64,000 nt of DNA from an uncultured Acidiferrobacteraceae bacterium (GCA_913009895.1 CAJVXY010000013.1:42-64041); one strand, 5' to 3'; counted from the stretch's first letter, positions 4,009 through 28,143 are shown. Notes: generated by a model from the sequence alone, not told the origin. A program made the numbers and translations.

Positions 4009-5587
4009 TGGTAATTTCTCGAATTAAATTTGTTGAGTTACTTTTTTTATGAACAGCTGGAAAGTTTAAAGAAATTTGAGTACCTTCTCCGGGCTCGCTT
4101 TCTATAAATAGCGCACCTTCCAGTCTCTGCGCCCGTTCCTTCATAATTGAAATGCCGATATTTTCACCGGGCCGTGAGATATGTCCCGCTGTCTCAGACG
4201 ATTCTATACCATGTCCGTCATCCTCGATGAGAATGATAAATTCTTCATCAAGGCCGTATTTTAATAAAATTCTGACATTTGAGGCGTCACTGTGTTTTCT
4301 AACATTGGTTAATGCTTCCTGAATGATTCTATATACCTGCACTTCCTGGACTGGTGAAAAACTGTATTCATTCCATTCGTTTTGCAAAAAAACAGATATT
4401 TTTGTTTCATCCTTAAACTTCAAAACCAGGTCTTTAATGGCAGGGACAAGTCCACGGTCATCAATTCGTGATTTATAATTGCCAAGCACATCACGCAAAT
4501 CTTCATGGGCCTCATCAATCGCGGTTTTCAGTCTTCTTACTTCGTTTTGTGCTCCTCGTATATCTTTTTTATATAATATTTCACCCAGCATTTTAATTTG
4601 CAGGCGCATGCTAACCAATGATTGGGCCAGGGAGTCGTGCAACTCGTTGCCAATCATATTTCGTTCTTCCATGATGGCTAATCGACGTTCATTATCATCA
4701 AGCCGTGATTTTTCAATAGCCAACCCCAGATGTTTACCGATACTATTTAATAGATCCCTGACGTCTCTTCCCAGTTCTTCGCTTGGTCGTTTCAAAAAGA
4801 GATTATAAATTCCAAGAATCTTTTCCCGGTACTGGAGCGGGACAACCACTAATTCGGCACAGCCATCAACAAGCAAATCCTGGCCAATTATTTTGTTGCA
4901 GGTTTCGATGCCTGTCTGGATACCAATGCCACCATTTTTTGTAATATTGCCGCAGAGACAACGATCAATATCCATGCAATTTTCCTGTTTTATGATTTCG
5001 CTGGAAAAACCCTTGCTTGCGATTAATACAGTAGAATTATTTTCAGTCAACAATCTGACGCTCGCGGCTTTAGCATCTACCAATACCATCAACGTATCAA
5101 GAAATTGTTCAAGCAAGTCGTCGAGATTTCTGGCGGTGCTTAAATCAGTGGCAATATCATATAAAATTTCCAGGGATCTACTTTTGGCTGCGATATGATC
5201 GGTTTTTTCTTGAACTCGAATGTCCATTTCTTCAATTAATCCGGAAACCTCGTGGGTTAAATTATTAACATCAGAAATAACGCCTTTAAAAGCCGTTTCT
5301 TCTGAAAGGGGTATGTCTGTCTGGAGATCACCTTTGCGTAAACGGTCGGACCATTTTTGGAGTTCTGTGAATGGCAGCAATAATTTTTTAATAACAAAGT
5401 AATATAAACCTGCTACAAGACCAAGCATCAGTATATCAATAGCGATGTAAAATATTGGCGTGCTGGCTGCCATTGCCTGACTGCCACTGATAAGCAATAC
5501 AATAGCAAGGATTGCAATCCCCAAAACAAGGACAGTAATGATTACAAGGGGATGAAAAATATTTAGTTTGTTAGTGGCCAGTTTCAT
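3989..5587 (-). CDS. NarX-class sensor histidine kinase (2 TM, HAMP, Cys-rich GAF, HisKA_3, HATPase)
   Basis: 532 aa with N-terminal TM helices. H-box ERNMIGNELHDSLAQSL. ATPase motifs DDGHGI and GENIGISIMKERA. Central GAF-like region carries 5 Cys (ENCMDIDRCLCGN...ETCNK...DGCAE). Confidence 0.85.
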   Translation of the reverse strand: MKLATNKLNIFHPLVIITVLVLGIAILAIVLLISGSQAMAASTPIFYIAIDILMLGLVAGLYYFVIKKLLLPFTELQKWSDRLRKGDLQTDIPLSEETAFKGVISDVNNLTHEVSGLIEEMDIRVQEKTDHIAAKSRSLEILYDIATDLSTARNLDDLLEQFLDTLMVLVDAKAASVRLLTENNSTVLIASKGFSSEIIKQENCMDIDRCLCGNITKNGGIGIQTGIETCNKIIGQDLLVDGCAELVVVPLQYREKILGIYNLFLKRPSEELGRDVRDLLNSIGKHLGLAIEKSRLDDNERRLAIMEERNMIGNELHDSLAQSLVSMRLQIKMLGEILYKKDIRGAQNEVRRLKTAIDEAHEDLRDVLGNYKSRIDDRGLVPAIKDLVLKFKDETKISVFLQNEWNEYSFSPVQEVQVYRIIQEALTNVRKHSDASNVRILLKYGLDEEFIILIEDDGHGIESSETAGHISRPGENIGISIMKERAQRLEGALFIESEPGEGTQISLNFPAVHKKSNSTNLIREITNARTSY

Positions 5588-5747
5588 TACCAGAAGTAAA
5601 TCAGGATTGGGGCGCCACTATAATTGTTTAGCCTACAGGGGTATAGAGGTGAAAATGTACTGTCTTATAAGTTATTGTTTAATATGATAATTAACAAATA
5701 CTGTGCTTTAAATCGAGCTTCGGCGCATTCAAAAAGTTACTTTATAA

Positions 5748-6059
5748 TTATTTTTCAGGAGGTACATAATTCGGGTCATTTGGATTCATAAATATAAATT
5801 GCGGTTTTTTTTCTTCAACCTCCACATAATCTATTGTCATATCTTTCAAAAGATCCAGGATGGCAGGCGAAAAAACAACTGTTACGCCATTTTCCTGAAC
5901 CTGAACATCATCGTCCGTAGCCTCGTCAAATCCCATGCCGTATTCAAAAGCATTATTGTCATCTTTTTTCACCGCCAGTCTCAGGCTCATGCCCTCCATA
6001 CCACCTTCTTTTGCCGAGGCTAAAATCTGGTCGGCGGCTTTTTTTGATATCTTTATCAT
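5748..6059 (-). CDS. dsrR: DsrR, IscA/HesB-like protein lacking the Fe-S ligand cysteines
   Basis: MIKISKKAADQIL...MSLRLAVKK...YGMGFD is an IscA-like fold with no cysteine in the protein. It sits directly after dsrN, as in Allochromatium vinosum. I chose the internal Met (6059), 4 nt past the dsrN stop; the ORF could extend to 6098. Confidence 0.75.
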   Translation of the reverse strand: MIKISKKAADQILASAKEGGMEGMSLRLAVKKDDNNAFEYGMGFDEATDDDVQVQENGVTVVFSPAILDLLKDMTIDYVEVEEKKPQFIFMNPNDPNYVPPEK

Positions 6060-6063
6060 AGAA

Positions 6064-7440
6064 CTAGTCCTGTTTTTTAACGCGTGAAACAAATTCAAGA
6101 AATTCGTTGATCCAGGGATTTGATAACGTATTTCTCTGGTGTGCGTAAGTTGCGATTATATTATTTTTTATAAAACCATCCTGCCTGTTGGTAATGCCTT
6201 TTCCTCGAATGACATCAAAACCAAAGTTATATTTGTTGGAATTAAACTTTAGTTCAGAATAATGAAATTCATGGGCAGGCTGTTGTAGGTCTTGCTTGAT
6301 ATTATCATTAATCCAGGGGTGTTTTTCATTTTTTTTAAGGTAAACGTAACCTCTGCCTACCGGCCTGTCGTGCATAACGGAGCTTGCATCGATTACGCCA
6401 AGCATTTCAGAATACTCCCCATGCCAGTGGATACCATTACTTAAGTACATCAGGCCACCACATTCGGCATACACTGGCAGGCCTTTATTAATTTTGTCTT
6501 TAAGCAGGGCTCTCAATTCAGTATTGTCTTCCAGTTGCTTCATTCGGCTTTCTGGAAAACCGCCGCCAATAAACAAGCCATCTATCGGTGCAATCTGTTT
6601 ATCATTGATGGCATCAATAAAGACCAGTTTAGCGCCAGCTTGTTCAAATGCTTCCAGATCATCCTGGTAATAAAAACCAAATGCCTCGTCACGCAATATG
6701 CCTATGGTAAGCCCGGATGTTTTTTTTGTATCCATACCGGGTGCGATATCGTGTTTATCAACAGTGGCAGCAATATTTTTTAATTGTTCAATATCGATTT
6801 GTTTTGAGATATTTTCGGATATATTTTTTATTAATAAGTGAGCACTGGCGGTTTCATTGCTGGGTATCAGGCCAAGGTGTCTCTCAACAATCTCAAGTGA
6901 TGGGTCACGTTGGATGGCGCCCAATACGGGAATATCCGTGTACTCTTGTAAAACGCGCCGCAGTTTTTCTTCGTGGCGGTTACCGCCAACCTTGTTAAGT
7001 ATCACGCCGGCTATATTTACGTCAGGTTCGAATTTCTGAAAACCAAGCAAGAGTGGGGCAACACTTCGTGTAATACCCTGGGTATCAATCACCATAATTA
7101 CCGGGGTCTTAAGTAACTTTGCCAGGGCTGCACTACTGTTGCTGCCATCAAGATCAAGTCCGTCAGACAAACCCTTGTTGCCTTCAATAATGCTTATATT
7201 GGCGTTATTACTTTTAGAGTCGAATAAGTTTGTTATTTCATCATGGGTCTGGGTAAAAAAATCAAGATTATAACAGGGCCTGCCTGATGCCAGGGCCAGC
7301 CACATTGGGTCTATATAGTCGGGACCCTTTTTAAAGGGCTGAACCTTGAAATTTTTCTTATGAAGCGCTGCACATAAACCAAGTGTGACCGTGGTTTTAC
7401 CAGAGGATTTATGGGCTGCAGAAATTAATAAACGTGCCAT
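6064..7440 (-). CDS. dsrN: DsrN, cobyrinic acid a,c-diamide synthase-like siroheme amidase
   Basis: 458 aa. CbiA-type P-loop LISAAHKSSGKTTVTLGL. C-terminal glutamine amidotransferase region with YAECGGLMYL. Located in the dsr cluster. Confidence 0.85.
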   Translation of the reverse strand: MARLLISAAHKSSGKTTVTLGLCAALHKKNFKVQPFKKGPDYIDPMWLALASGRPCYNLDFFTQTHDEITNLFDSKSNNANISIIEGNKGLSDGLDLDGSNSSAALAKLLKTPVIMVIDTQGITRSVAPLLLGFQKFEPDVNIAGVILNKVGGNRHEEKLRRVLQEYTDIPVLGAIQRDPSLEIVERHLGLIPSNETASAHLLIKNISENISKQIDIEQLKNIAATVDKHDIAPGMDTKKTSGLTIGILRDEAFGFYYQDDLEAFEQAGAKLVFIDAINDKQIAPIDGLFIGGGFPESRMKQLEDNTELRALLKDKINKGLPVYAECGGLMYLSNGIHWHGEYSEMLGVIDASSVMHDRPVGRGYVYLKKNEKHPWINDNIKQDLQQPAHEFHYSELKFNSNKYNFGFDVIRGKGITNRQDGFIKNNIIATYAHQRNTLSNPWINEFLEFVSRVKKQD

Positions 7441-15524: not shown

Positions 15525-15860
15525 TTATACGCAACCAGTAGGCTTGGGCAAACCAGCATACTTACATGCTTGTTTGGCTGGGCCATATGGGAAAAGTTCG
15601 TACAGGTATTTACTGTTGCCCTTGTCTGGACCCAATTTTTTGCCAATGGCTTTGGTCAGAACACGTACTGCAGGTGCAATCTGGTATTCTTCATAATATT
15701 CACGCAGGAACTTAATAACTTCCCAGTGATTATCGGACAGTTCACAGTCATCAATCTTAGCCATTTCGGTAGCAATTTCTTCGTTCCAATCACCACGGTC
15801 AGCCAGATAACCTTCTTCATCTACTTCAACGGCATTTCCAGCAACATCAATCGTAGCCAT
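15525..15860 (-). CDS. dsrC: DsrC, sulfur-carrier/substrate protein of DsrAB
   Basis: 111 aa. The canonical C-terminal arm ...QACKYAGLPKPTGCV has both conserved cysteines. Confidence 0.95.
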   Translation of the reverse strand: MATIDVAGNAVEVDEEGYLADRGDWNEEIATEMAKIDDCELSDNHWEVIKFLREYYEEYQIAPAVRVLTKAIGKKLGPDKGNSKYLYELFPYGPAKQACKYAGLPKPTGCV

Positions 15861-18265: not shown

Positions 18266-19585
18266 TTATCCTGCAGCGGCTTCGGCTTTACGCTTGTTCC
18301 ACTTTTCGGCTTCGAGATCCCAGTCATCCATGCGCACATAAGAACCGGCACGAGGGGCGGTGATCATGTTTGGATCGACATCAATACCAATGCCTTCCAG
18401 GAAATTCACAAGACCGATACGTTCAATCATTTCACCGGTTCGTTCATGTTCCAGGGCATTTTCGGCAAAGAAATCGATGGTATCTTCAGCAATTCCTACC
18501 AGGCGATCATATTCTTCGTCGGTTTCAAGCTTCATGAAAGGAATAATGACAGTACCCATGGTGTCACCAATTTTCAGCGTACGTTTGCCGCCGATTAATA
18601 ATGTTATGCCATGGTCATCGCCCGGTGATAACGCTTTGGTCATGACGTTGATGCAATGCATACAACGAACACAGTTACGGTTATCAACTGCGAGTGTGTT
18701 GTCATCATTAAGTGAAAGGGCGTTGGTGGGGCAACGACTGATGACATTATCAACCATGTATTTCTGCCCTTTGGCTTCAACAAATTTTTTCACTTCATCC
18801 TGATCAACTTTCATATCATCGCGCCAGGTGCCAATGACCGCAAAGTCTGAACGATGGATAGAGTTCATGCAGTCATTGGGACAACCAGAAACCTTGAATT
18901 TGAACTTGTATGGCAGTGCAGGGCGATGCATGTCATCCATAAAGTTGTTCACCAACAAACGGTGAATCTTGTGCTCGTTCGCACAAGACTGTTCGCATCG
19001 GGCGGCGCCAATACAGGACATGCCGGTTCGAACACAAGGTCCGGCACCACCAAGATCCCAGCCGTATTCATTGATTTCATCAAAGAAATGCTGCGTATTT
19101 TCAGATGTGGTGCCAATAAACATGATGTTGCCTGTCTGGCCATGGAAAGCAATCAAGCCTGAACCGTATTTATCCCAGCTGCTTGATAATTTACGCAACA
19201 TATCAGTTGTGTAGTGGTTAGCGGGTGGAGGTTGTACACGCAAGGTATGAAATTCTTTTGCCGCTGGAAACATAGGTGAGCCCTTTGAATCCATCAGTTC
19301 GGTAAAACGGGGGATGATGCCGCCGCCATAACCGAAAACAGAAACAGTGCCACCTTTCCAGTAGCCCAGTCTTGTCTTGTAAGAGTGCTCAAGCTGACCA
19401 AGGAGATCGACCATCATGTCGCTTTCCAGCGCCAATCGTTTCAGGCCGGTGACAAAACTTGGCCATGGACCACTTTCGAGTTGATCCAGCATCGGTGTAT
19501 CGTGAAATGGCTTGTCAGAATTCTTCTGATCAAGCGGAAGATAGGTGCTATGTACTTTTGGATTCTTGGGCTTTTTGTCTGCCAT
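18266..19585 (-). CDS. dsrA: reverse-type dissimilatory sulfite reductase alpha subunit
   Basis: PMLDQLESGPWPSFVTGLK near the N-terminus, plus CPNDC and CVRCMHCINV cluster motifs. I placed the start at the Met preceded by AGGAGA 8 nt upstream (19585); the ORF could extend to 19624. Confidence 0.95.
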   Translation of the reverse strand: MADKKPKNPKVHSTYLPLDQKNSDKPFHDTPMLDQLESGPWPSFVTGLKRLALESDMMVDLLGQLEHSYKTRLGYWKGGTVSVFGYGGGIIPRFTELMDSKGSPMFPAAKEFHTLRVQPPPANHYTTDMLRKLSSSWDKYGSGLIAFHGQTGNIMFIGTTSENTQHFFDEINEYGWDLGGAGPCVRTGMSCIGAARCEQSCANEHKIHRLLVNNFMDDMHRPALPYKFKFKVSGCPNDCMNSIHRSDFAVIGTWRDDMKVDQDEVKKFVEAKGQKYMVDNVISRCPTNALSLNDDNTLAVDNRNCVRCMHCINVMTKALSPGDDHGITLLIGGKRTLKIGDTMGTVIIPFMKLETDEEYDRLVGIAEDTIDFFAENALEHERTGEMIERIGLVNFLEGIGIDVDPNMITAPRAGSYVRMDDWDLEAEKWNKRKAEAAAG

Positions 19586-19782
19586 TAATATGTCTCCTAA
19601 ACGTGCCATTAATGCTTTATGCATTAACGATTGGGTTCCGTTTGACTCCGTATACCAAATCTAGGGGCGCTCATTATTCAGATTTCTCCACATACTTGCA
19701 ATGGCTATTTCAAAAATAAACAAACGCACCAGTAAAGTTCCGGAACGAATTCTATGTCTTGAGCAGGTATCGAAAAACCGGT

Positions 19783-19821
19783 CTTTGGGGGGAGGTAAAA
19801 TTAACTTATCCCCCCCCAAAG
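19783..19821. promoter_or_regulatory. perfect 10-bp G/C-run hairpin in the dsrA / divergent-operon control region
   Basis: CTTTGGGGGG (19783-19792) pairs with CCCCCCAAAG (19812-19821) across a 19-nt AT-rich loop. On the minus strand it is followed by ACCGGTTTTT. It lies about 200 nt upstream of the dsrA start. Confidence 0.4.
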
Positions 19822-20110
19822 TGGATATAAGAAATGTTGAGTATTTGTATAATTTTAAAAGAAAATATAACAATTTTTCTTTAAAAACAGTAAGTAATGT
19901 ACTCTTTATAATGTTTTATCTAGGTATATTTTTAATCGATAAGAACATAAATTTTGAATGGAGAATGGTGTGTTAATAGTCTTTTTTTAAGCGCAGGATT
20001 GTTCTACATTGCCGCCACAGAATAAATCTTCACTTATCTTTGAAAAAGTGTCGATCTTGAACTTCAAGTTGTATCACATTTAATTGCACTAAGTTAGATA
20101 GAAACTATAC

Positions 20111-21028
20111 ATGACTAAAGCCAATATTAACCCTGAGCCAAGCCAGAATCCCTTTGCCTTGGGCAATCAGGAGGTTTATTTGCGCTGGCAAGAGCAGAAG
20201 CTGGCCGCTTATCCTGAATTGGCAGGCCAGCTCATTGTAGAGGTAAGGGACCCCAGGGCCCTCTCCCGAGCAGAAAAGCAGAAAATTACCGAGTTATGTC
20301 AAAAGACCAATATGGCTATTTACCAGTCAGAGGTGAAGGATGCGGACAAGGATGTACCCAGGTTACTGGGCAGGCAAATGGGCCTGACTAATCTTGATCC
20401 TAACATGCTGGCCGATGAGGACGGAATTACTTCCCTCGAATTGATGCCGGCCAAACATGAGCGGGGCTATATCCCTTATTCAAACAGGCGGTTATTGTGG
20501 CATACGGATGGGTACTACAACGATTCCAGCCATCGAATTGCGGCCATGTTGTTACATTGTGTGCGTCCGGCACTTTCAGGTGGTGAAAACAGCCTGCTTG
20601 ATCACGAAATGGTCTATTTATTGTTACGCGAACAGGATCCAATGTATATCAAGGCGTTAATGGATCCTGAGGCCATGACTATCCCCGCCAATCTTGAGGC
20701 TGGTGAAGTTGAGCGTCCTGCCCAATCGGGGCCAGTATTCAGTACCAATGAACAGGGCTCATTAAGTATGCGTTATACGACCCGAGTTCGCAGCATAATC
20801 TGGAAGGACAATATTGCCACTAAATCAGCCGTTGAAGCCCTGGCAAATATTTTAGACAGTGATTGTAAGTACATATTTCATCACCGTCTCGAGGCAGGAC
20901 AGGGTATTATTTGCAACAATGTGCTCCACAACAGGACCAGCTTTAAAAATGGTGAATCAACTGCAACCCAAAGACTGATTTACCGGGCAAGGTACTATGA
21001 CCGCATAAACAGTGGCACTGATAAATGA
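20111..21028 (+). CDS. TauD/TfdA-family Fe(II)/2-oxoglutarate dioxygenase
   Basis: 305 aa. LLWHTDGYY gives the HxD iron ligands. The distal VLHNRTSF supplies His and Arg. Overall length and layout fit the family. Confidence 0.7.
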   Translation: MTKANINPEPSQNPFALGNQEVYLRWQEQKLAAYPELAGQLIVEVRDPRALSRAEKQKITELCQKTNMAIYQSEVKDADKDVPRLLGRQMGLTNLDPNMLADEDGITSLELMPAKHERGYIPYSNRRLLWHTDGYYNDSSHRIAAMLLHCVRPALSGGENSLLDHEMVYLLLREQDPMYIKALMDPEAMTIPANLEAGEVERPAQSGPVFSTNEQGSLSMRYTTRVRSIIWKDNIATKSAVEALANILDSDCKYIFHHRLEAGQGIICNNVLHNRTSFKNGESTATQRLIYRARYYDRINSGTDK

Positions 21029-21062: not shown

Positions 21063-21260
21063 ATGCTTAATTTAAGTGAAATAATGATGGAGCATCATGA
21101 GCTCGAAACATTTGAAGCGCTCATTGAAACTGTAAAAAGCAAAGCCGGGCAAGACATGTTCTTTCGCATTGATATTAAGCCAACCTATCCAGACACACCT
21201 GCCAACTGGGAGGACCAGCTGGAGGGGGCATTTTCTGGTGTCAATTCCGTTACCAGGTAA
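21063..21260 (+). CDS. small hypothetical protein (65 aa)
   Basis: ATG preceded by GGGAG about 8 nt upstream. Lies 34 nt after the dioxygenase gene. Acidic, with no recognisable motif. The ORF-track start at 21012 overlaps the upstream gene. Confidence 0.4.
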   Translation: MLNLSEIMMEHHELETFEALIETVKSKAGQDMFFRIDIKPTYPDTPANWEDQLEGAFSGVNSVTR

Positions 21261-21309: not shown

Positions 21310-22017
21310 ATGAAATATTTAAAAGAAGATGTGGGCATGAATGACGCTGACAGTATTGATGACGCTGCAATATCAACTGTTCGCCTGGAACAACAAATGG
21401 AGGCACTAGAAGACAGACTCCGTGAATTACCTGCAGATAGTGGTCCGGTAGAACGTGCCGACCTGGAACTCAATATCGCAGCCACCCTGGTGGATCTTGA
21501 TCGATCAGCGGAAGGTTTTGCCAAGGCCAGGGCTTGTCTTGATGTTTTTTTACAAACAGAAGACTGGGAGCTGGCAGCCCAGGCCTGTGACGTCATGTTC
21601 AATGCGGACCAGGAGGATTCCCTTGCAGCATTGGGCCAGGGTATTTGGCTGGCGGTCACTTATCCTGTTGACCCGGAGTTAACGGTTGCCATTTTACAGC
21701 ATGTCATTGACGAAACACCGGATGATTCTGATGGCGGGGCATTGGCTGCTGCCACAGCGCGATATATTGTTGATATGCGTGCCGAGGGCAAGCAAAAGGA
21801 CAACCTTGTTTTTTTTGCGAACAATCTACTGGGCACTGTGGCACGACGCCATAGCAATATTGAAAACCAGGCTGACTTCCAGGCATGGATCGAAAAACTG
21901 GAATTGAATGATCCAGATAAATTTCTGATTAGGTTGCGAAATGTGGTTGATGTGCTGGTCCAGGAGAACTGGTGGTTTGATCGCGATGCACTGCGCGAAC
22001 GATTACCGTTAAATTAA
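21310..22017 (+). CDS. acidic hypothetical protein (235 aa)
   Basis: Long ORF with normal composition in an operon context. No motif I can assign. Confidence 0.6.
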   Translation: MKYLKEDVGMNDADSIDDAAISTVRLEQQMEALEDRLRELPADSGPVERADLELNIAATLVDLDRSAEGFAKARACLDVFLQTEDWELAAQACDVMFNADQEDSLAALGQGIWLAVTYPVDPELTVAILQHVIDETPDDSDGGALAAATARYIVDMRAEGKQKDNLVFFANNLLGTVARRHSNIENQADFQAWIEKLELNDPDKFLIRLRNVVDVLVQENWWFDRDALRERLPLN

Positions 22018-22036: not shown

Positions 22037-22720
22037 ATGTACTGGCAAGAAGAAAACAAAAGGGATGTTGCAATATCTGATGAGGTCCAGGACCTGGTTT
22101 ACAAGATCAGGTGCACCTCGTTACCAGTTGATCATGCCTTTGCGTTAGCCGAAGAAATTATTTCTTTCTTGCCCTGGATGGCCACGGAAACAGGGGCCGG
22201 TATTCATTCAATTCATGTGGCGGATTCAGGCAACGGCTGGATGCGGCCTGAAAATCCCGATGAACTATTACATCTTTCAAGACGCACAAAACTGATTCTG
22301 AGGGTGCCAAAAAATCGCCTGGAATCGGCATTGTCCCTGGTTGATGAGACCCTGGATATTGCCGGCAATAAAATGATCATAGAGTCTGTAGAACAGCGGC
22401 CATTAAGTAAAATAACAACCTTATTCTGTCGTTATCTTGTTTTTTCCGAGCAGCAGGAAGCAGAAAATATATTTCTCGATAAGGCCATGCAGGCCCTGCA
22501 AGAGATAAATGTCATCCCAAAAAAATTGTTACCCGGACTGGAAAAGACTATCCAAAAACCCGGGAAAATGATAAAAACTCGCAGCTTGATGATTGCAGGC
22601 ATATCCGCGGAGGAGTCCTTTAAATTACAGCAAAAAGGGCTTGGTATGCACCATCATTTAGGTTGTGGCATTTTTATACCACACAAGGATATTGAAGAGA
22701 TCGGCAAAACACCAGAGTGA
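22037..22720 (+). CDS. Cas6/Cmx6-like (RAMP-fold) protein, orphan (no CRISPR array)
   Basis: 227 aa. The N-terminus (LVYKIRCTSLPVDHAFALAEEI) and the C-terminal glycine-rich loop QQKGLGMHHHLGCGIFIPHK resemble what I recall of the subtype I-MYXAN Cas6 (Cmx6) family. This needs HMM confirmation. Confidence 0.45.
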   Translation: MYWQEENKRDVAISDEVQDLVYKIRCTSLPVDHAFALAEEIISFLPWMATETGAGIHSIHVADSGNGWMRPENPDELLHLSRRTKLILRVPKNRLESALSLVDETLDIAGNKMIIESVEQRPLSKITTLFCRYLVFSEQQEAENIFLDKAMQALQEINVIPKKLLPGLEKTIQKPGKMIKTRSLMIAGISAEESFKLQQKGLGMHHHLGCGIFIPHKDIEEIGKTPE

Positions 22721-22770
22721 TGCTGGTGTTATGACCGACAATTAATTATTTAACCTATGGGGAATACATC

Positions 22771-23109
22771 ATGGCTTTTGAAGTAGACGGTAAAGAAATT
22801 GAAACAACAGCAAGTGGTTTTTTGGTCAATATCGATGACTGGAGTGAAGATCTGGCAAAAGTTATATCCGATGATGAAGGTGTTGAATTGACAGAAAAAC
22901 ACTGGGACTTGATTAAGTACTTGCGTGATGAGTTTGTTAACAATAATGGCAACCAGCCAAATACCAGAAAAATTGTCAAAGCGATGGGCCAAAAATGGGG
23001 CGAAAGCATCGACACAAAAAAACTCTATGAATTATTCCCTCGTGATCCTTCCAAACAAGCTGGCAGAATAGGCGGCCTGCCTGAATCACGAAGAAAGGGC
23101 GGATACTAA
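22771..23109 (+). CDS. TusE/DsrC-family protein lacking both C-terminal cysteines
   Basis: 112 aa, aligns by eye with the dsrC in this window (HWDLIKYLRDEF / HWEVIKFLREYY; LYELFP in both). The tail is QAGRIGGLPESRRKGGY rather than QACKYAGLPKPTGCV. The protein contains no cysteine. Confidence 0.85.
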   Translation: MAFEVDGKEIETTASGFLVNIDDWSEDLAKVISDDEGVELTEKHWDLIKYLRDEFVNNNGNQPNTRKIVKAMGQKWGESIDTKKLYELFPRDPSKQAGRIGGLPESRRKGGY

Positions 23110-23126: not shown

Positions 23127-23975
23127 ATGTCGTTTACTACCCTGGTGACCACTGCCGAAGTCGCGGCACATCTTGATGATCCTGATTGGGTAATTTTTGA
23201 TTGTCGCTTTACCCTGACAGACGCGACTGTGGGCAGAAAGGCATACCATGAAGGTCATATTCCAGGCGCGATTTATGCGCACCTGGATGATGATCTTGCC
23301 GCACCAGTTAATGCAATCAGTGGCCGTCATCCCTTGCCGGATGCAGATGTTTTATCTGCCAAGCTGGGCACATGGGGTGTGGACAAGAATACGCAAATTG
23401 TTGTTTATGATGACGCGTTTGGCGCCATGGCCTGCAGGATGTGGTGGTTGTTGCGATGGTTGGGTCATGACCACGTAGCGTTACTGGACGGCGTCTATCC
23501 CAAGTGGTGCCGGGAAAAAAGACCAACGGATAACCTGCCTGAAAAACCCGTCGCCAGGAAGTTCGTGGCCAATGTACAAGCTGATATGGTAGTTGATGCT
23601 GATGCTGTAATTACCCATCTGGCAAATGAATCAGGCCCCCTGGTTGATGCCAGGCCGGATGTTCGTTTTTCAGGAGAGGTCGAGCCAATTGATAAAGTAG
23701 CTGGCCATATACCGGGGGCCACCAATCGCCCATTTGACGATAACCTGAATATTGGTGGAGACTTTCTGCCGATTGCAGAACTAAAGGAAGAATTTTCCCC
23801 TTTCCTGACGATCAAAAATCCCGCTCAAATTATACATATGTGCGGTTCAGGCGTGACCGCATGTCATAACATTCTGGCAATGGAACATATTGGTATTAAA
23901 GGCACGAGATTATATGTGGGCAGCTGGAGTCAGTGGATCACTGACCCGGACCGCAAGATAACGGCAGGGGAATGA
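23127..23975 (+). CDS. sseA: tandem-rhodanese sulfurtransferase, 3-mercaptopyruvate sulfurtransferase type
   Basis: 282 aa with two rhodanese domains. Active-site loop CGSGVTA, which is the MST-type loop. Confidence 0.8.
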   Translation: MSFTTLVTTAEVAAHLDDPDWVIFDCRFTLTDATVGRKAYHEGHIPGAIYAHLDDDLAAPVNAISGRHPLPDADVLSAKLGTWGVDKNTQIVVYDDAFGAMACRMWWLLRWLGHDHVALLDGVYPKWCREKRPTDNLPEKPVARKFVANVQADMVVDADAVITHLANESGPLVDARPDVRFSGEVEPIDKVAGHIPGATNRPFDDNLNIGGDFLPIAELKEEFSPFLTIKNPAQIIHMCGSGVTACHNILAMEHIGIKGTRLYVGSWSQWITDPDRKITAGE

Positions 23976-24039: not shown

Positions 24040-24780
24040 CTACTTTGGTTTCGGAACATCGAACTTGTATTGTTTATCTTTATATTTAAATCCAACTGGT
24101 TGTGCTTTATCAGTTTCCCATGTATGTAAAAGCAAGCCCGCTTTATCGAATACGGTTATTTGGGTGCGAGGTTGGCCGTCACGGACCAGCGAAGAAAGAA
24201 TCCAGAATACTATGCCATCGTCCGATGAGCCAAATTTGAAAGCATTTGGTGCGTGGGGCAGTTCAGCTACCAGCCTGCCATTTTTATCCAGTAAAATACT
24301 TTTATCCAGGTTGTAATTTTTGGCGCGCTGGCCAAGCAATATTCGATCACTCGGCGTAGCAATAATTACTTCGCCCCTGAATTCCGTTTCTTTATTTATA
24401 AGAATACCGCTGTAGTCGTAAATACGAATTTCACTACGGCTGCCTTCGAAAAAGGACATAAATTTAATAACAGCAACTCTTTGCCATTTATTAATTTTTA
24501 CAACGTTTTCCCTATAATAGATTGGCTCTTGTTTGCGGTAAGCATCCAGTGGTTTTTCGTGCAGTTGCCGGCGTTTGTAATATTCAATGACTCTGCCACC
24601 AACGAAATTTATTGTTCCCTCATCAACTAATGGCAATGACTCGTCCTTGTCCATGGTAGGGCCAAGCTTTTCCTCCAGGTCAGTTTTACTTTGTTGCGAT
24701 GCAACAGGACTTTCTGTCGCAGAAATTGCGACAGGAATGGTGAGTAAAAATAGCAGTGGTAAAAAGTGCTTGAAACTCAT
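24040..24780 (-). CDS. secreted hypothetical protein
   Basis: The internal Met gives MSFKHFLPLLFLLTIPVAISA, a signal peptide. The longer ORF (to 24879) would overlap msrB. No recognisable domain. Confidence 0.55.
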   Translation of the reverse strand: MSFKHFLPLLFLLTIPVAISATESPVASQQSKTDLEEKLGPTMDKDESLPLVDEGTINFVGGRVIEYYKRRQLHEKPLDAYRKQEPIYYRENVVKINKWQRVAVIKFMSFFEGSRSEIRIYDYSGILINKETEFRGEVIIATPSDRILLGQRAKNYNLDKSILLDKNGRLVAELPHAPNAFKFGSSDDGIVFWILSSLVRDGQPRTQITVFDKAGLLLHTWETDKAQPVGFKYKDKQYKFDVPKPK

Positions 24781-24796
24781 TTGGGCACAATATTCC

Positions 24797-25228
24797 TTAT
24801 TCTTTTGCAATAAAATCCAGTGATGCCGAGTTAATACAATATCGAAGGCCCGTAGGCTCAGGCCCATCTTCAAATACATGGCCCAAATGACCGTGACATA
24901 ACGAACAGATCACTTCTTTTCGCATCATTCCGTGGCTCTCATCTATTACTTCGGAGACACTCTCAGTTTTAGCAGGTTGCCAGTAACTTGGCCAGCCTGT
25001 TTCAGAGTCAAATTTATTGTCAGATAAAAATAGCGCCTGACCGCAGCATTTACAGGTGTAGGTGCCTTCATCTTTCTGGTCCCAATATTCGCCCGTAAAA
25101 GCTCTTTCTGTGCCATGGCAACGAGTAATAGTATAGTCATCGGGGCTTAGCTGTGATCGCCACTCGTCGTCCGTTTTGAATATGGCTGGTTTTGTTTTTT
25201 TTGCCGACAAAGCTAAACCTCGCTCCAC
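24797..25228 (-). CDS. msrB: peptide-methionine (R)-S-oxide reductase
   Basis: Two CxxC zinc motifs (CKCCG, CSLCHG), GHLGHVF, and catalytic RYCINS. Confidence 0.9.
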
Positions 25229-25887
25229 ATGCGAACAAGATTGGTATAGGTATGATCAATTTGTGCCGTTTCTTCTGCGCCTGGTGCCTGGGCCAGCATT
25301 TTTTCACGGGCGAGACTCAGCTCATACAAGAGTTCTCTTTTAGCCGGATCACGTACCAGGCTTTGTATCCACAAGACCGCAACAAGCCGCTGTCCTTTGG
25401 TTACTTCGCTGACATGGTGCAGACTGGAAGCTGGATAACAAACTGCATCACCAGCAGATAGTTTAGTGCTGGTTTGACCAAAGCTTGTATTGACAACCAG
25501 CTCGCCACCTTCATAGTCATCAGGTTCAGAGAGAAAGATCGTGACTGCAACATCCGTTCGATAACGTTCCGGCCAGTTTCCGGTTACCGGATCATCGATA
25601 TGGTCACCATAAGACATACCTTTTTCATACTTGGCAAAGAATGGCTGGGAAACTTTATGAGGTAAGGTAGCATTACGGAATATAATGTTCTGACTTAACG
25701 AGCTCACCACCAAATCATCGAGATAAGCAGCTTGTTGGGAATTTTGATCAAGCTCAAGATTTGTTTTGACTTTTTTAGCGGCACTGCCAGCTGATAATTT
25801 GCCATCTACAAAACTGGCTTGTGACAAGACTTTAGAAATATTTTTTAGTTTTCCCTGATCAAGAATATTGGGTATTATAATATACAT
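25213..25887 (-). CDS. PKHD-type Fe(II)/2OG hydroxylase (YbiX/PiuC family)
   Basis: 224 aa, colinear with E. coli YbiX as I recall it: YGDHIDD (HxD), [26 protein letters not shown]. Overlaps msrB by 16 nt. Confidence 0.85.
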
Positions 25888-25895
25888 TCTATTAA

Positions 25896-26249
25896 TTATT
25901 TCTTCGATTCGGTTTGCGTAAATTCTGTTTGTGTAAATTCAGTTCCGAGGGGTTCACCAGACGTGTCAATATTTACACCTGTCACATTTGGCATGCGTGT
26001 CAAAATATAACCTGCCATTAGCATTAATAAATTTTCATTCTGTGTATCAACGGCCTGGAGAATTTTTTCAGAAGCAATTTGACAGCGGTTGATCAGCGTG
26101 GGTTGTTCAATAAATTCTGGCCCCATTTGCCAGCCTCGATCCATGTCCCGATCCATTTTTTCAAAAAAAGGCTCACCATTTGTGAATATGTCTTCAGGAA
26201 TTTCAAGTTCCCTGGTTTTGTCTTCAATTGTTATTTTTAGTTTCATCAA
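25896..26249 (-). CDS. hypothetical protein (117 aa)
   Basis: ORF 8 nt upstream of the hydroxylase gene on the same strand. The C-terminus carries a TEFTQTEFTQ tandem repeat. No known motif. Confidence 0.5.
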   Translation of the reverse strand: MMKLKITIEDKTRELEIPEDIFTNGEPFFEKMDRDMDRGWQMGPEFIEQPTLINRCQIASEKILQAVDTQNENLLMLMAGYILTRMPNVTGVNIDTSGEPLGTEFTQTEFTQTESKK

Positions 26250-26300
26250 AATTTATCCGGACTAATTAAACGTGTGCATCGGCTATAAATACAATTACGA

Positions 26301-27353
26301 TCACGCGGCAGGAAGCAAGGCATGCATTTGAGCCTCAATATCGCCCCGGGCTTTTGCGCCTTTTGTTTTGTATGTCTCCATGGCCTGTGCCGCAATTTTT
26401 TGCCAACGATCAATACCGCTGCAAATTAATGACGACATTGCGCCTGTTTTTTTAGTTTCTACCCACTGTTCATAGGCGTGCCTTAGCTCCGGGAACAAAT
26501 GTTTGCGTAAACCGGAATAATTTGCAAAATAAAAATGCATGGATAAATTTTTTTCTTTTTCAAGCAAGGAGGGTAATGTGACCAGGCAGTCAGCCAGAAT
26601 ATCTCGCACCGCTCTTAAAAAGAACTCGGCCCTGGAGCCAGACATATCATTCATAAGCATGTGCCAGTTGGTATCAAGTTGGTAACCAGCCTTAATTTCG
26701 CCAAGCTCATGCAATATCATTGTTTCTGTTTCAGTTTCAACCAGCATATCCAGAATCGGTTCAATATTATCCAGGTTTTTCCATTCTGCCAGTACGTTTT
26801 TCATTGGGCCTGTTTTATTTTTGTTCAGGCGCCATTCTTCAATTCTTTCCCAGATAAAACGCCGCATGGACTCTTGTCTGATAAAAATATCATTATCAAT
26901 ACTCATAGCTGGCGGGGCCACCAGGTCCCTGGCGAACTCAGCGGTGGAAATATAAATATTTAAATTATCTTGTTGCCTGGTTTCAGAAAGTTTACCGATA
27001 AAAAAATGTGGTTTGCCAAAAATTCCAACACCACTGCTATAGACATGGCCTTGTGATATTAATTCTTTGTTTATTTTATCGGTCTCAAAGGGCCCATATT
27101 CCCGGGAGAGTTTAATCGGCTGATAGTCTTTATTGGCAATTTCGGCCCAGTGGTGTTCGCGCTTTGCCAGCCAATCGCCGATATCATGCTGGGACATGTT
27201 AGCACTGAAATTCAACCTGTTTTCCCAACGGTAGTATTCACGCATTTTTAACAGGTAAGTACACATGGAGTAATTACCCGCATACTGGGCATCTGATAAA
27301 TCACAGTTTTGCTGTACCCGTTCAATTAACCCAGGACTTAAAGGATTTTTCAT
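26301..27353 (-). CDS. hypothetical protein (350 aa)
   Basis: Long ORF with normal composition and first in the minus-strand gene string. No motif I can assign. Confidence 0.6.
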   Translation of the reverse strand: MKNPLSPGLIERVQQNCDLSDAQYAGNYSMCTYLLKMREYYRWENRLNFSANMSQHDIGDWLAKREHHWAEIANKDYQPIKLSREYGPFETDKINKELISQGHVYSSGVGIFGKPHFFIGKLSETRQQDNLNIYISTAEFARDLVAPPAMSIDNDIFIRQESMRRFIWERIEEWRLNKNKTGPMKNVLAEWKNLDNIEPILDMLVETETETMILHELGEIKAGYQLDTNWHMLMNDMSGSRAEFFLRAVRDILADCLVTLPSLLEKEKNLSMHFYFANYSGLRKHLFPELRHAYEQWVETKKTGAMSSLICSGIDRWQKIAAQAMETYKTKGAKARGDIEAQMHALLPAA

Positions 27354-27555
27354 AGCATGACTATCCCAATAATTTTATACCATTGATATGCTTTTTAGCA
27401 TGACTTGTCTTTAGTGCCAAATCACGAAAGACAGGGTAATTCTTTGTCGTTTTATGTCCGACAGGTGTCAGGGCCGGCATGTCATTTGTCATTTGACCCG
27501 CAAGTACCACAAACACATAATGTGTAATCACCGTCATTTATCCCTTATTTATCAA

Positions 27556-28143
27556 ATGCACACAAGACGAAATATCAAAGAAGTCGAACCGAATTCATTT
27601 ATTTATGAAATAAACAGGGCCCTTCCCGGGGATATCTGCCAGGAAATGATTCGTCGTTTTGACAAATACAAAAATGAGCAATATGCGGGGCGAATTGGTC
27701 AGACAGCTGAAGAGCATAACGACATCAAACGCTCAACAGACCTGGTTATTAGCGGCAAAGAACACTGGCGGGATCTCGATCGGGCCTTATTCCAGTCCCT
27801 GGGAGCGGTAATTCACCAGTTCCGGGAAACATTTCCCTATTTCAAAGGCCCCTTCAAGGATATGGGTTATGCCATTCAACGCACCAGTCCGGGTGAATTT
27901 TATCATTGGCATATTGATGGCGGCAGTCACGAGTTTAGCCAGCGTCAGTTAGTCGCAGTTTGGTATTTAAATGACGTACCGGGCCCGGGGGGTGAAACAG
28001 AATTTAAATTCCAGCATGTAAAAATTAAACCTGAACAGGGAAAATTGGTGTTGTTCCCGCCTTTTTGGACCCATGAGCATCGTGGCGTAACGCTGGAATC
28101 GGGAATAAAATACATCGCCACGACCTGGGTTATTTTTGCCTGA
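27556..28143 (+). CDS. 2OG-Fe(II) oxygenase superfamily protein (prolyl-4-hydroxylase-like)
   Basis: YHWHIDGG (HxD) and the distal FWTHEHRG. The start is uncertain: the ORF opens at 27454, and I chose Met35 because the preceding 34 residues are His/Cys/Arg-rich and look non-native. Confidence 0.7.
   Translation: MHTRRNIKEVEPNSFIYEINRALPGDICQEMIRRFDKYKNEQYAGRIGQTAEEHNDIKRSTDLVISGKEHWRDLDRALFQSLGAVIHQFRETFPYFKGPFKDMGYAIQRTSPGEFYHWHIDGGSHEFSQRQLVAVWYLNDVPGPGGETEFKFQHVKIKPEQGKLVLFPPFWTHEHRGVTLESGIKYIATTWVIFA

Follow-up and report, generated by a model that had tools for sequence, protein, structure and literature searches.

Many free-living and symbiotic Proteobacteria oxidise sulfur in the cytoplasm mainly through the reverse Dsr pathway. 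Cysteine-deficient homologues of the pathway's DsrC protein have been grouped as "RspA" within the DsrC/TusE/RspA family (Venceslau 2014, as cited in PMC8477390 and PMC9371685). In Methylovirgula thiovorans, for instance, a DsrC-like gene located three genes from TauD/DsrQ was described as a "probable regulatory sulfur-related protein" (PMC9371685). Herein, we describe a cysteine-free member of this family, called the KGGY protein below. It is encoded in a window of 64,000 nucleotides, the whole stretch of DNA that was analysed, from an uncultured Acidiferrobacteraceae bacterium. Like RspA, the KGGY protein belongs to the DsrC family, lacks the penultimate cysteine (CysA), occurs in dsr-bearing hosts and presumably carries no sulfur. 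RspA, however, is a catch-all for cysteine-deficient homologues, and its name implies a putative regulatory role, whereas the KGGY proteins are one sharply delimited, monophyletic subgroup restricted to rDsr organisms, with an invariant arm. By cysteine deficiency, in the sense in which the citing papers use the term, the KGGY protein would be classed as RspA.

Oxidative DsrC is the closest described relative in form. The KGGY protein has the same fold, the same length, the GLP hinge and a flexible C-terminal arm, and its gene lies less than 7 kb from dsrAB. It differs from DsrC in lacking both CysA and CysB, in a longer arm that ends in RKGGY, in polar rather than hydrophobic residues at positions 58-65 and in a tryptophan (W76) in place of a leucine. 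Unlike DsrC, it can neither be persulfurated by DsrEFH nor serve DsrAB as a trisulfide substrate. TusE (E. coli YccK), which acts in the tRNA 2-thiouridine relay, is placed in the same Pfam and TIGRFAM family, and homologues of the KGGY protein are labelled "tRNA 2-thiouridine synthesizing protein E" by JGI. TusE, however, needs the penultimate cysteine that the KGGY protein lacks, and the source genome has a separate TusE-type paralogue.

DsrD offers a comparison in mode of working only. Sulfate and sulfite reducers encode this small HTH-type protein alongside dsrAB. For years it was taken for a regulator that binds DNA, yet its DNA binding proved to be only non-specific, and it acts at the protein level as an allosteric activator of DsrAB (PMC8794893). 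DsrD is a winged-helix protein of ~78 aa, with no sequence or fold kinship to the KGGY protein. To our knowledge, oxidative dsr clusters are without dsrD.

In the searchable literature, no paper paired KGGY with DsrC, and papers naming both DsrC and Cas6 held only unrelated co-mentions. The monophyly of the KGGY proteins, their invariant arm, their restriction to rDsr organisms and their independence of the Cas6-like gene in Alphaproteobacteria were not found in searchable papers either.

The KGGY gene and its neighbourhood

The features of the window that bear on the KGGY gene are listed below.

15525..15860, minus strand: bona fide dsrC with CysB and CysA, tail QACKYAGLPKPTGCV, in dsrABEFHCMK (PF04358, E=1.7e-45)
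18266..19624, minus strand: dsrA of the oxidative type, whose presence tracks the KGGY protein over genomes (110 of 113 carriers with DsrA)
20111..21028, plus strand: dsrQ, TauD-family Fe(II)/2-oxoglutarate dioxygenase-like, divergent from dsrA (PF02668, E=3.4e-18)
21063..21260, plus strand: small acidic protein; likely true start M18 of an 82-aa ORF beginning at 21012 (from homologue lengths and tblastn)
21310..22017, plus strand: very acidic protein of 235 aa with no assigned family (pI 4.2)
22037..22720, plus strand: Cas6/Cmx6-like gene without CRISPR context, 50 nt upstream of the KGGY gene (PF09559, E=8.7e-56)
22759..22764, plus strand: Shine-Dalgarno-like GGGGAA, 6 nt ahead of the ATG (read from the sequence)
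22771..23109, plus strand: cysteine-free DsrC-family gene (RspA-type, KGGY clade), 112 aa plus stop (ORF listing, PF04358, AF2, dN/dS)
23071..23106, plus strand: C-terminal arm of the KGGY protein, residues 101-112, GGLPESRRKGGY, taking the place of the cysteine-bearing DsrC arm (from conservation)
23127..23975, plus strand: two-domain rhodanese (SseA-like), 17 nt downstream of the KGGY gene (PF00581, NF008557)

The KGGY open reading frame starts with ATG and encodes 112 residues, none of them cysteine, with the C-terminal end ...PRDPSKQAGRIGGLPESRRKGGY. Its product matched PF04358 with E=3.8e-33 (114.6 bits against a cut-off of 24.9) and TIGR03342 with 98.6 bits (cut-off 53.5). Identity to the product of the window's own dsrC (15525-15860, minus strand) was 38% over 104 residues (E=8e-25). 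In a joint alignment, the DsrC tail ...QACKYAGLPKPTGCV paired with ...QAGRIGGLPESRRKGGY of the KGGY protein, placing Gly98 opposite CysB and Gly111 opposite CysA. The GLPESRRKGGY arm stands where DsrC has GLPKPTGCV and extends two residues further past the GLP hinge. Bona fide DsrC carries CysA as its penultimate residue and the two cysteines in CysB-X10-CysA spacing; the KGGY protein has glycine at position 111 and no such spacing. Its tail GGLPESRRKGGY also fell outside the DiSCo motif AGLPKPTG(not N)CA, which admits at most one difference (PMC8477390). Against the TusE equivalog NF008562, it scored 96.5 bits, below the cut-off of 191, and the penultimate cysteine by which TusE accepts sulfur from TusBCD is missing. 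Since the protein has no thiol, DsrC and TusE chemistry are excluded; it is unable to form the DsrC persulfide or trisulfide or to relay sulfur as TusE does. An earlier reading, made from the sequence alone, had called the gene a DsrC/TusE paralogue that aligns with the bona fide dsrC, has no cysteine at all and carries a replaced functional arm, making two-cysteine persulfide/trisulfide chemistry impossible. The family matches, the alignment and the AF2 model with its DsrC fold agree with that description.

No other ORF of at least 80 aa in the 2.85-Mb genome ends in GGY or [KR]GGx. This uniqueness ruled out the arm as a C-terminal tag common to several proteins.

The genome encodes six PF04358 genes. 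These are the two-cysteine dsrC, the KGGY gene, two CysB-only genes ending ...KQACKIAGMKRPRAWSTG, one CysA-only gene of the TusE type (contig C3, ending ...GGLPKPTGCV) and one partial CysB-only gene cut by the end of contig C58. The presence of several specialised paralogues argues that the KGGY gene is not a replacement for DsrC or TusE. The two CysB-only paralogues ending ...KQACKIAGMKRPRAWSTG (G000:C9:9387-9746 and G000:C8:10029-10517, both on the plus strand) lack CysA and formed their own well-supported tree branch together with P0234. Contig C8 also bears a second DsrQ/TauD-like paralogue (G000:C8:29909-30778, plus strand), with 53% identity to the product of 20111-21028. Among the representative library, P0121 (541 aa) contained five tandem DsrC-like domains, ended in ...GLPRIVGTI and ranked top by summed score.

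In the window, dsrCHFEBA occupies the minus strand, and from dsrA the genes for DsrQ, the small acidic protein, the 235-aa protein, the Cas6-like protein, the KGGY protein and the rhodanese run divergently on the plus strand. The order from dsrQ to the KGGY gene recurs on SUP05-like, Sulfuriflexus, Thiohalomonadaceae and other gammaproteobacterial contigs. A TauD-like gene upstream of the dsr clusters of aerobic chemotrophic sulfur oxidisers has been named dsrQ (Lenk 2012, as cited in PMC7596348). Homologues of the small acidic protein are 67-68 aa long, and their tblastn matches start at query residues 16-18. The 235-aa protein gave no Pfam or NCBIfam match; it is present at loci L006-8, L016-18, L020, L028 and L031 and not at L001-5, L019 and L021. 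Outside the window, the rhodanese holds this position in the nearest relatives (L016 and L017) only, and both genes are lineage-specific members of the locus. The Cas6-like gene is the sole PF09559 copy of the genome. Between the Cas6-like, KGGY and rhodanese genes, no terminator-like sites were found on the plus strand. Further along the window (24040-28143) lie genes for a PiuC-like 2OG oxygenase, a P4H-like 2OG oxygenase, DUF6866 and a 117-aa protein, and these genes recur near the dsrQ-to-KGGY genes at many gammaproteobacterial loci.

Conservation and distribution of the KGGY protein

Searching 5.8 billion proteins yielded 1444 relatives of the KGGY protein. Among the best 120 of these, 118 are cysteine-free with the KGGY arm, and nearly all tails read [AGS]GLPESRRKGGY. 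An alignment of 80 sequences, Alphaproteobacteria included, contained 28 invariant columns, with G102, E105, R108, K109, G110, G111 and Y112 invariant throughout. Representatives at 50% identity carried the arm variants ESMRKGGY, QSTRKGGY, QVMRKGGY and RPIRRDGY. Since the arm varies only upstream, its hallmark is the C-terminal [RK]-[KR]-G-G-Y. Compared with the nearest orthologue, from an Acidiferrobacteraceae MAG (L016, 95% identity), the KGGY gene gave a dN of 0.031, a dS of 0.657 and a dN/dS of 0.047. For remoter orthologues synonymous sites were saturated, and the arm was still kept. In a maximum-likelihood tree of 61 family members, the KGGY proteins formed one clade (support 99/92) apart from the DsrC, TusE-type and CysB-only proteins; the sole exception, P0243, is a long-branched KGGY sequence that fell outside it. 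These results show that the KGGY proteins are a distinct monophyletic subfamily and that the product of the KGGY gene is functional, has the DsrC fold and is subject to strong purifying selection. The sequence-only reading would have been undone by errors at the 3' end concealing a cysteine-containing tail. No such DsrC tail was found in either other frame at the 3' end of 22771-23109, and the same KGGY tail in 118 of the best 120 homologues confirms that the arm is not a sequencing error.

Phylogenetic profiles were built over 400 evenly drawn Gammaproteobacteria, among which related genomes are non-independent samples, and a genome was counted as a carrier when the alignment covered the KGGY arm. 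A full-length match including the arm was found in 113 of the 400 genomes, plus a contig-end fragment in G387. For comparison, matches numbered 124 for rDsrA, 124 for DsrQ (401 genomes sampled) and 123 for the Cas6-like protein. DsrA was present in 110 of the 113 carriers. The three carriers without DsrA keep the DsrQ and Cas6-like genes, and dsrA is therefore probably unassembled there. About 14 DsrA-positive genomes have no KGGY gene, which makes the protein dispensable for Dsr function as such. We considered whether the genomes lacking it are phototrophs and rejected this idea, since a PF00124 reaction-centre gene occurred in 0 of 10 DsrA-positive, KGGY-negative genomes. In one genome (G276; locus L042, G276:C90, 2048-2146, minus strand), only the first 33 KGGY residues are left, directly downstream of an intact Cas6-like gene. 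This remnant looks like a pseudogenised copy.

Five alphaproteobacterial MAGs also encode the KGGY protein, each with a perfect ...GLPES[RK]RKGGY arm. All five have rDsrA, and DsrQ adjoins dsrA in every one. Three of the five KGGY genes stand among housekeeping genes (RlmN, RNase P protein, PP-loop ATPase), unlinked from dsr, and a further one comes after dsrN, at the distal end of the dsr cluster. PF09559 was not detected in these five MAGs, which may be incomplete, and genes for P4H-like (PF13640) and DUF6866 proteins were not found in them. In the sampled genomes, the KGGY protein is thus almost entirely confined to carriers of the oxidative Dsr pathway.

Phage-borne copies were also considered and rejected, as only two IMG/VR contigs carried a KGGY-type gene, and neither dsr nor Cas6-like genes lay within 4 kb of it. 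Both contigs are classed as viral, and the genes are L047:4001-4312 (...GLPESRRKGGY) and L048:4001-4336 (...GLPFVARKGGY).

Structure and possible roles

The AF2 model of the KGGY protein reached a pLDDT of 88 and a pTM of 0.79, and it has the N-terminal beta-hairpin, HTH-like helical core and C-terminal arm of the DsrC fold. At the last residues the pLDDT was ~50; the arm is therefore predicted to be flexible. Foldseek aligned the model with A. vinosum DsrC (1YX3) at a TM of 0.86 and 40% identity over 111 columns, and its eight best matches were all DsrC-family structures (TM 0.74-0.87). Twenty-seven conserved positions are common to the KGGY protein and rDsrC, LFP..P.KQ..GLP among them. Another 16 are conserved within both groups yet differ between them, and these cluster in residues 58-65, at W76 and in the arm. 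Residues 58-65 cover the HTH-like turn and lead into the helix that follows it; here rDsrC has E..IAPAV and the KGGY protein has N..NQPNT (N58, N61, Q62, N64 and T65 against E, I, A, A and V). The earlier statement that the HTH-like core is retained stands for the fold, with the qualification that residues 58-65 are systematically changed.

We propose that the KGGY protein is a non-catalytic accessory of the oxidative Dsr pathway acting at the protein level, docking as DsrC does and placing its arm in a partner. We assign this reading a probability of about 0.5. The DsrC body and GLP hinge would dock the protein on its partner, an idea that rests on the common conserved positions, and the basic, flexible arm would insert into the partner's site. 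The likeliest partner would be one that normally receives the arm of DsrC; DsrAB leads the candidates, followed by DsrK. Instead of delivering sulfur, the KGGY protein would modulate or protect this partner, by analogy with the activation of DsrAB by DsrD. In Gammaproteobacteria, the gene would be co-transcribed with dsrQ and the genes for the small acidic protein and the CRISPR-free Cas6-like protein, none of which would be an obligate partner. Against the accessory reading, the adjacency of the Cas6-like gene in 91 of 109 Gammaproteobacteria could mark a real partner there. The sequence-only reading had also suggested a competitive binder of DsrEFH or DsrAB. Binding to DsrAB in this manner is possible. 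The DsrEFH version found no support, as the published interaction of DsrEFH with DsrC strictly needs DsrC Cys111 and DsrE Cys78 (PMC3397948), which argues against a decoy role.

It is unlikely, in our judgement, that the KGGY protein is instead a nucleic-acid-binding regulator, controlling dsr expression with its HTH-like core and RRK arm on dsr promoter DNA, or on RNA jointly with the Cas6-like protein. A dedicated regulator was proposed by the sequence-only reading, and the literature name "regulatory sulfur-related protein" has this meaning. Nucleic-acid binding is conceivable, given the HTH-like fold and the basic residues of the arm. The operon has a 486-bp control region (19625-20110) in common with dsrA, the usual neighbour of the KGGY gene comes from the RNA-binding family PF09559, and the literature labels cysteine-less DsrC homologues RspA, probable regulators (PMC9371685). 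However, the KGGY protein is acidic, with a pI of 5.06 (clade median 5.0, and 4.7 for the clade core minus the arm), and the Cas6-like protein has a pI of 5.9. This acidity argues against a dedicated DNA-binder, and the HTH-like turn is the most altered stretch of the core. DsrD, a better DNA-binding fold, proved to be no regulator (PMC8794893), and in some Alphaproteobacteria the KGGY gene is unlinked from dsr.

The intergenic regions bear on the same question. A 7-4-7 palindrome of approximately ATATCCC-N4-GGGATAT occurred in 8 of 12 dsrA-dsrQ intergenic regions, at loci other than that of the window, against a shuffle mean of 0.65, an enrichment that is biased because the motif was defined on the very regions in which it was then counted. 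The eight loci are L005, L017, L018, L019, L020, L021, L028 and L031 (e.g., L031:5058-5075). The repeat was not found in the control region of the window (19625-20110) or in L016, L001 and L006, and over the whole window it was no more frequent than in shuffled sequence. In some lineages, a dsr regulator could use it as its operator. Among perfect stems of at least 7 bp sought as an RNA target of the Cas6-like protein, none was conserved in 11 dsrA-dsrQ intergenic regions. Taken on its sequence features, a role as a dedicated DNA-binding regulator is weakly disfavoured.

A dedicated subunit or adaptor of a module with the Cas6-like and small acidic proteins, in which the Cas6-like protein would receive the KGGY arm and the complex would have a job of its own beside dsrAB, is quite unlikely. 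In 91 of the 109 genomes that encode both proteins, the Cas6-like gene immediately precedes the KGGY gene on the same strand (median gap 109 nt), and 109 of the 112 KGGY carriers scored possess a Cas6-like gene. The gene order is repeated in SUP05-like, Sulfuriflexus, Thiohalomonadaceae and Acidiferrobacteraceae loci. This pairing is nevertheless broken in both directions. The five alphaproteobacterial genomes have a perfect arm and no detectable PF09559, and G293, which is 99% complete and from the same order as the source genome, encodes DsrA and the KGGY protein and neither DsrQ nor the Cas6-like protein. At least four genomes (G012, G080, G202 and G304) keep the Cas6-like gene with no arm-bearing KGGY copy anywhere. 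Over the same loci, moreover, the KGGY protein is 60-70% identical, against 35-50% for the Cas6-like protein. It had been asked at the outset whether cysteine-less copies always neighbour the Cas6-like gene, and the answer is no. With no Cas6-like gene detected in the five Alphaproteobacteria, and Cas6-like genes present without the KGGY protein in some Gammaproteobacteria, the sole constant partner is the oxidative Dsr pathway.

The arm could also be the substrate or presenter for an oxygenase, either DsrQ or one of the nearby prolyl-hydroxylase-like 2OG enzymes, being hydroxylated or trimmed with O2 to give an oxygen-responsive Dsr switch. We regard this as very unlikely. DsrQ is found in 108 of the 113 carriers and adjoins dsrA in all five Alphaproteobacteria, a PF13640 oxygenase gene lies directly downstream in SUP05-like and Sulfuriflexus loci, the arm contains invariant Pro, Arg, Lys and Tyr, and its [KR]GGx ending is the only one among the genome's ORFs of at least 80 aa. 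However, three near-complete genomes (G196, G293 and G369, 97-99% complete) have the KGGY protein without DsrQ, which breaks an obligate pairing of the two, and ~16 genomes have DsrQ without the KGGY protein. The five alphaproteobacterial carriers, in which neither the prolyl-hydroxylase-like oxygenase nor DUF6866 was found, likewise led us to reject either of these as an obligate partner, and no biochemical precedent is known for a DsrC-fold substrate. We give equally little credence to the RKGGY arm as a plug, in which the C-terminal Tyr, on a Gly-Gly tether exceeding the DsrC arm by two residues, would reach and reversibly cap the siroheme pocket of rDsrAB or the active site of DsrK, possibly after O2-dependent modification by DsrQ.

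A decayed, non-functional DsrC duplicate, or a 3'-end assembly or sequencing error, has practically no probability. Its single point of support is the loss of both catalytic cysteines, and the reading is refuted by the dN/dS of 0.047 against L016, an arm invariant over orders and two classes, the monophyly of the clade and the lack of an alternative frame restoring a cysteine tail.

Meaning for sulfur-oxidising bacteria

Our results show the KGGY protein in about nine of ten sampled rDsr Gammaproteobacteria and more conserved than its neighbours, which makes it very likely a working part of the pathway. We know of no Dsr pathway model that includes it. The standard annotation as "TusE" or "sulfur relay protein" is chemically impossible for this protein, and it can throw off tools that tally dsrC copies. 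The top-100 transcripts of Ca. Thiodiazotropha endolucinida include those of three "dsrC/tusE" genes, one of which, peg.3241, adjoins tusB/dsrH (PMC13137333, Table 1). Eleven genes past peg.3241, peg.3252 is by position alone a candidate KGGY orthologue, with a median TPM of ~4800-6600 (PMC13137333).

If the plug reading were true, the arm would form an oxygen-responsive, protein-level gate on the Dsr pathway in aerobic sulfur oxidisers. Should the KGGY protein modulate DsrAB in the way of DsrD in reducers, it would take up the DsrD-like role left vacant in oxidisers and would serve as a functional marker of Dsr systems of the aerobic chemotrophic type.
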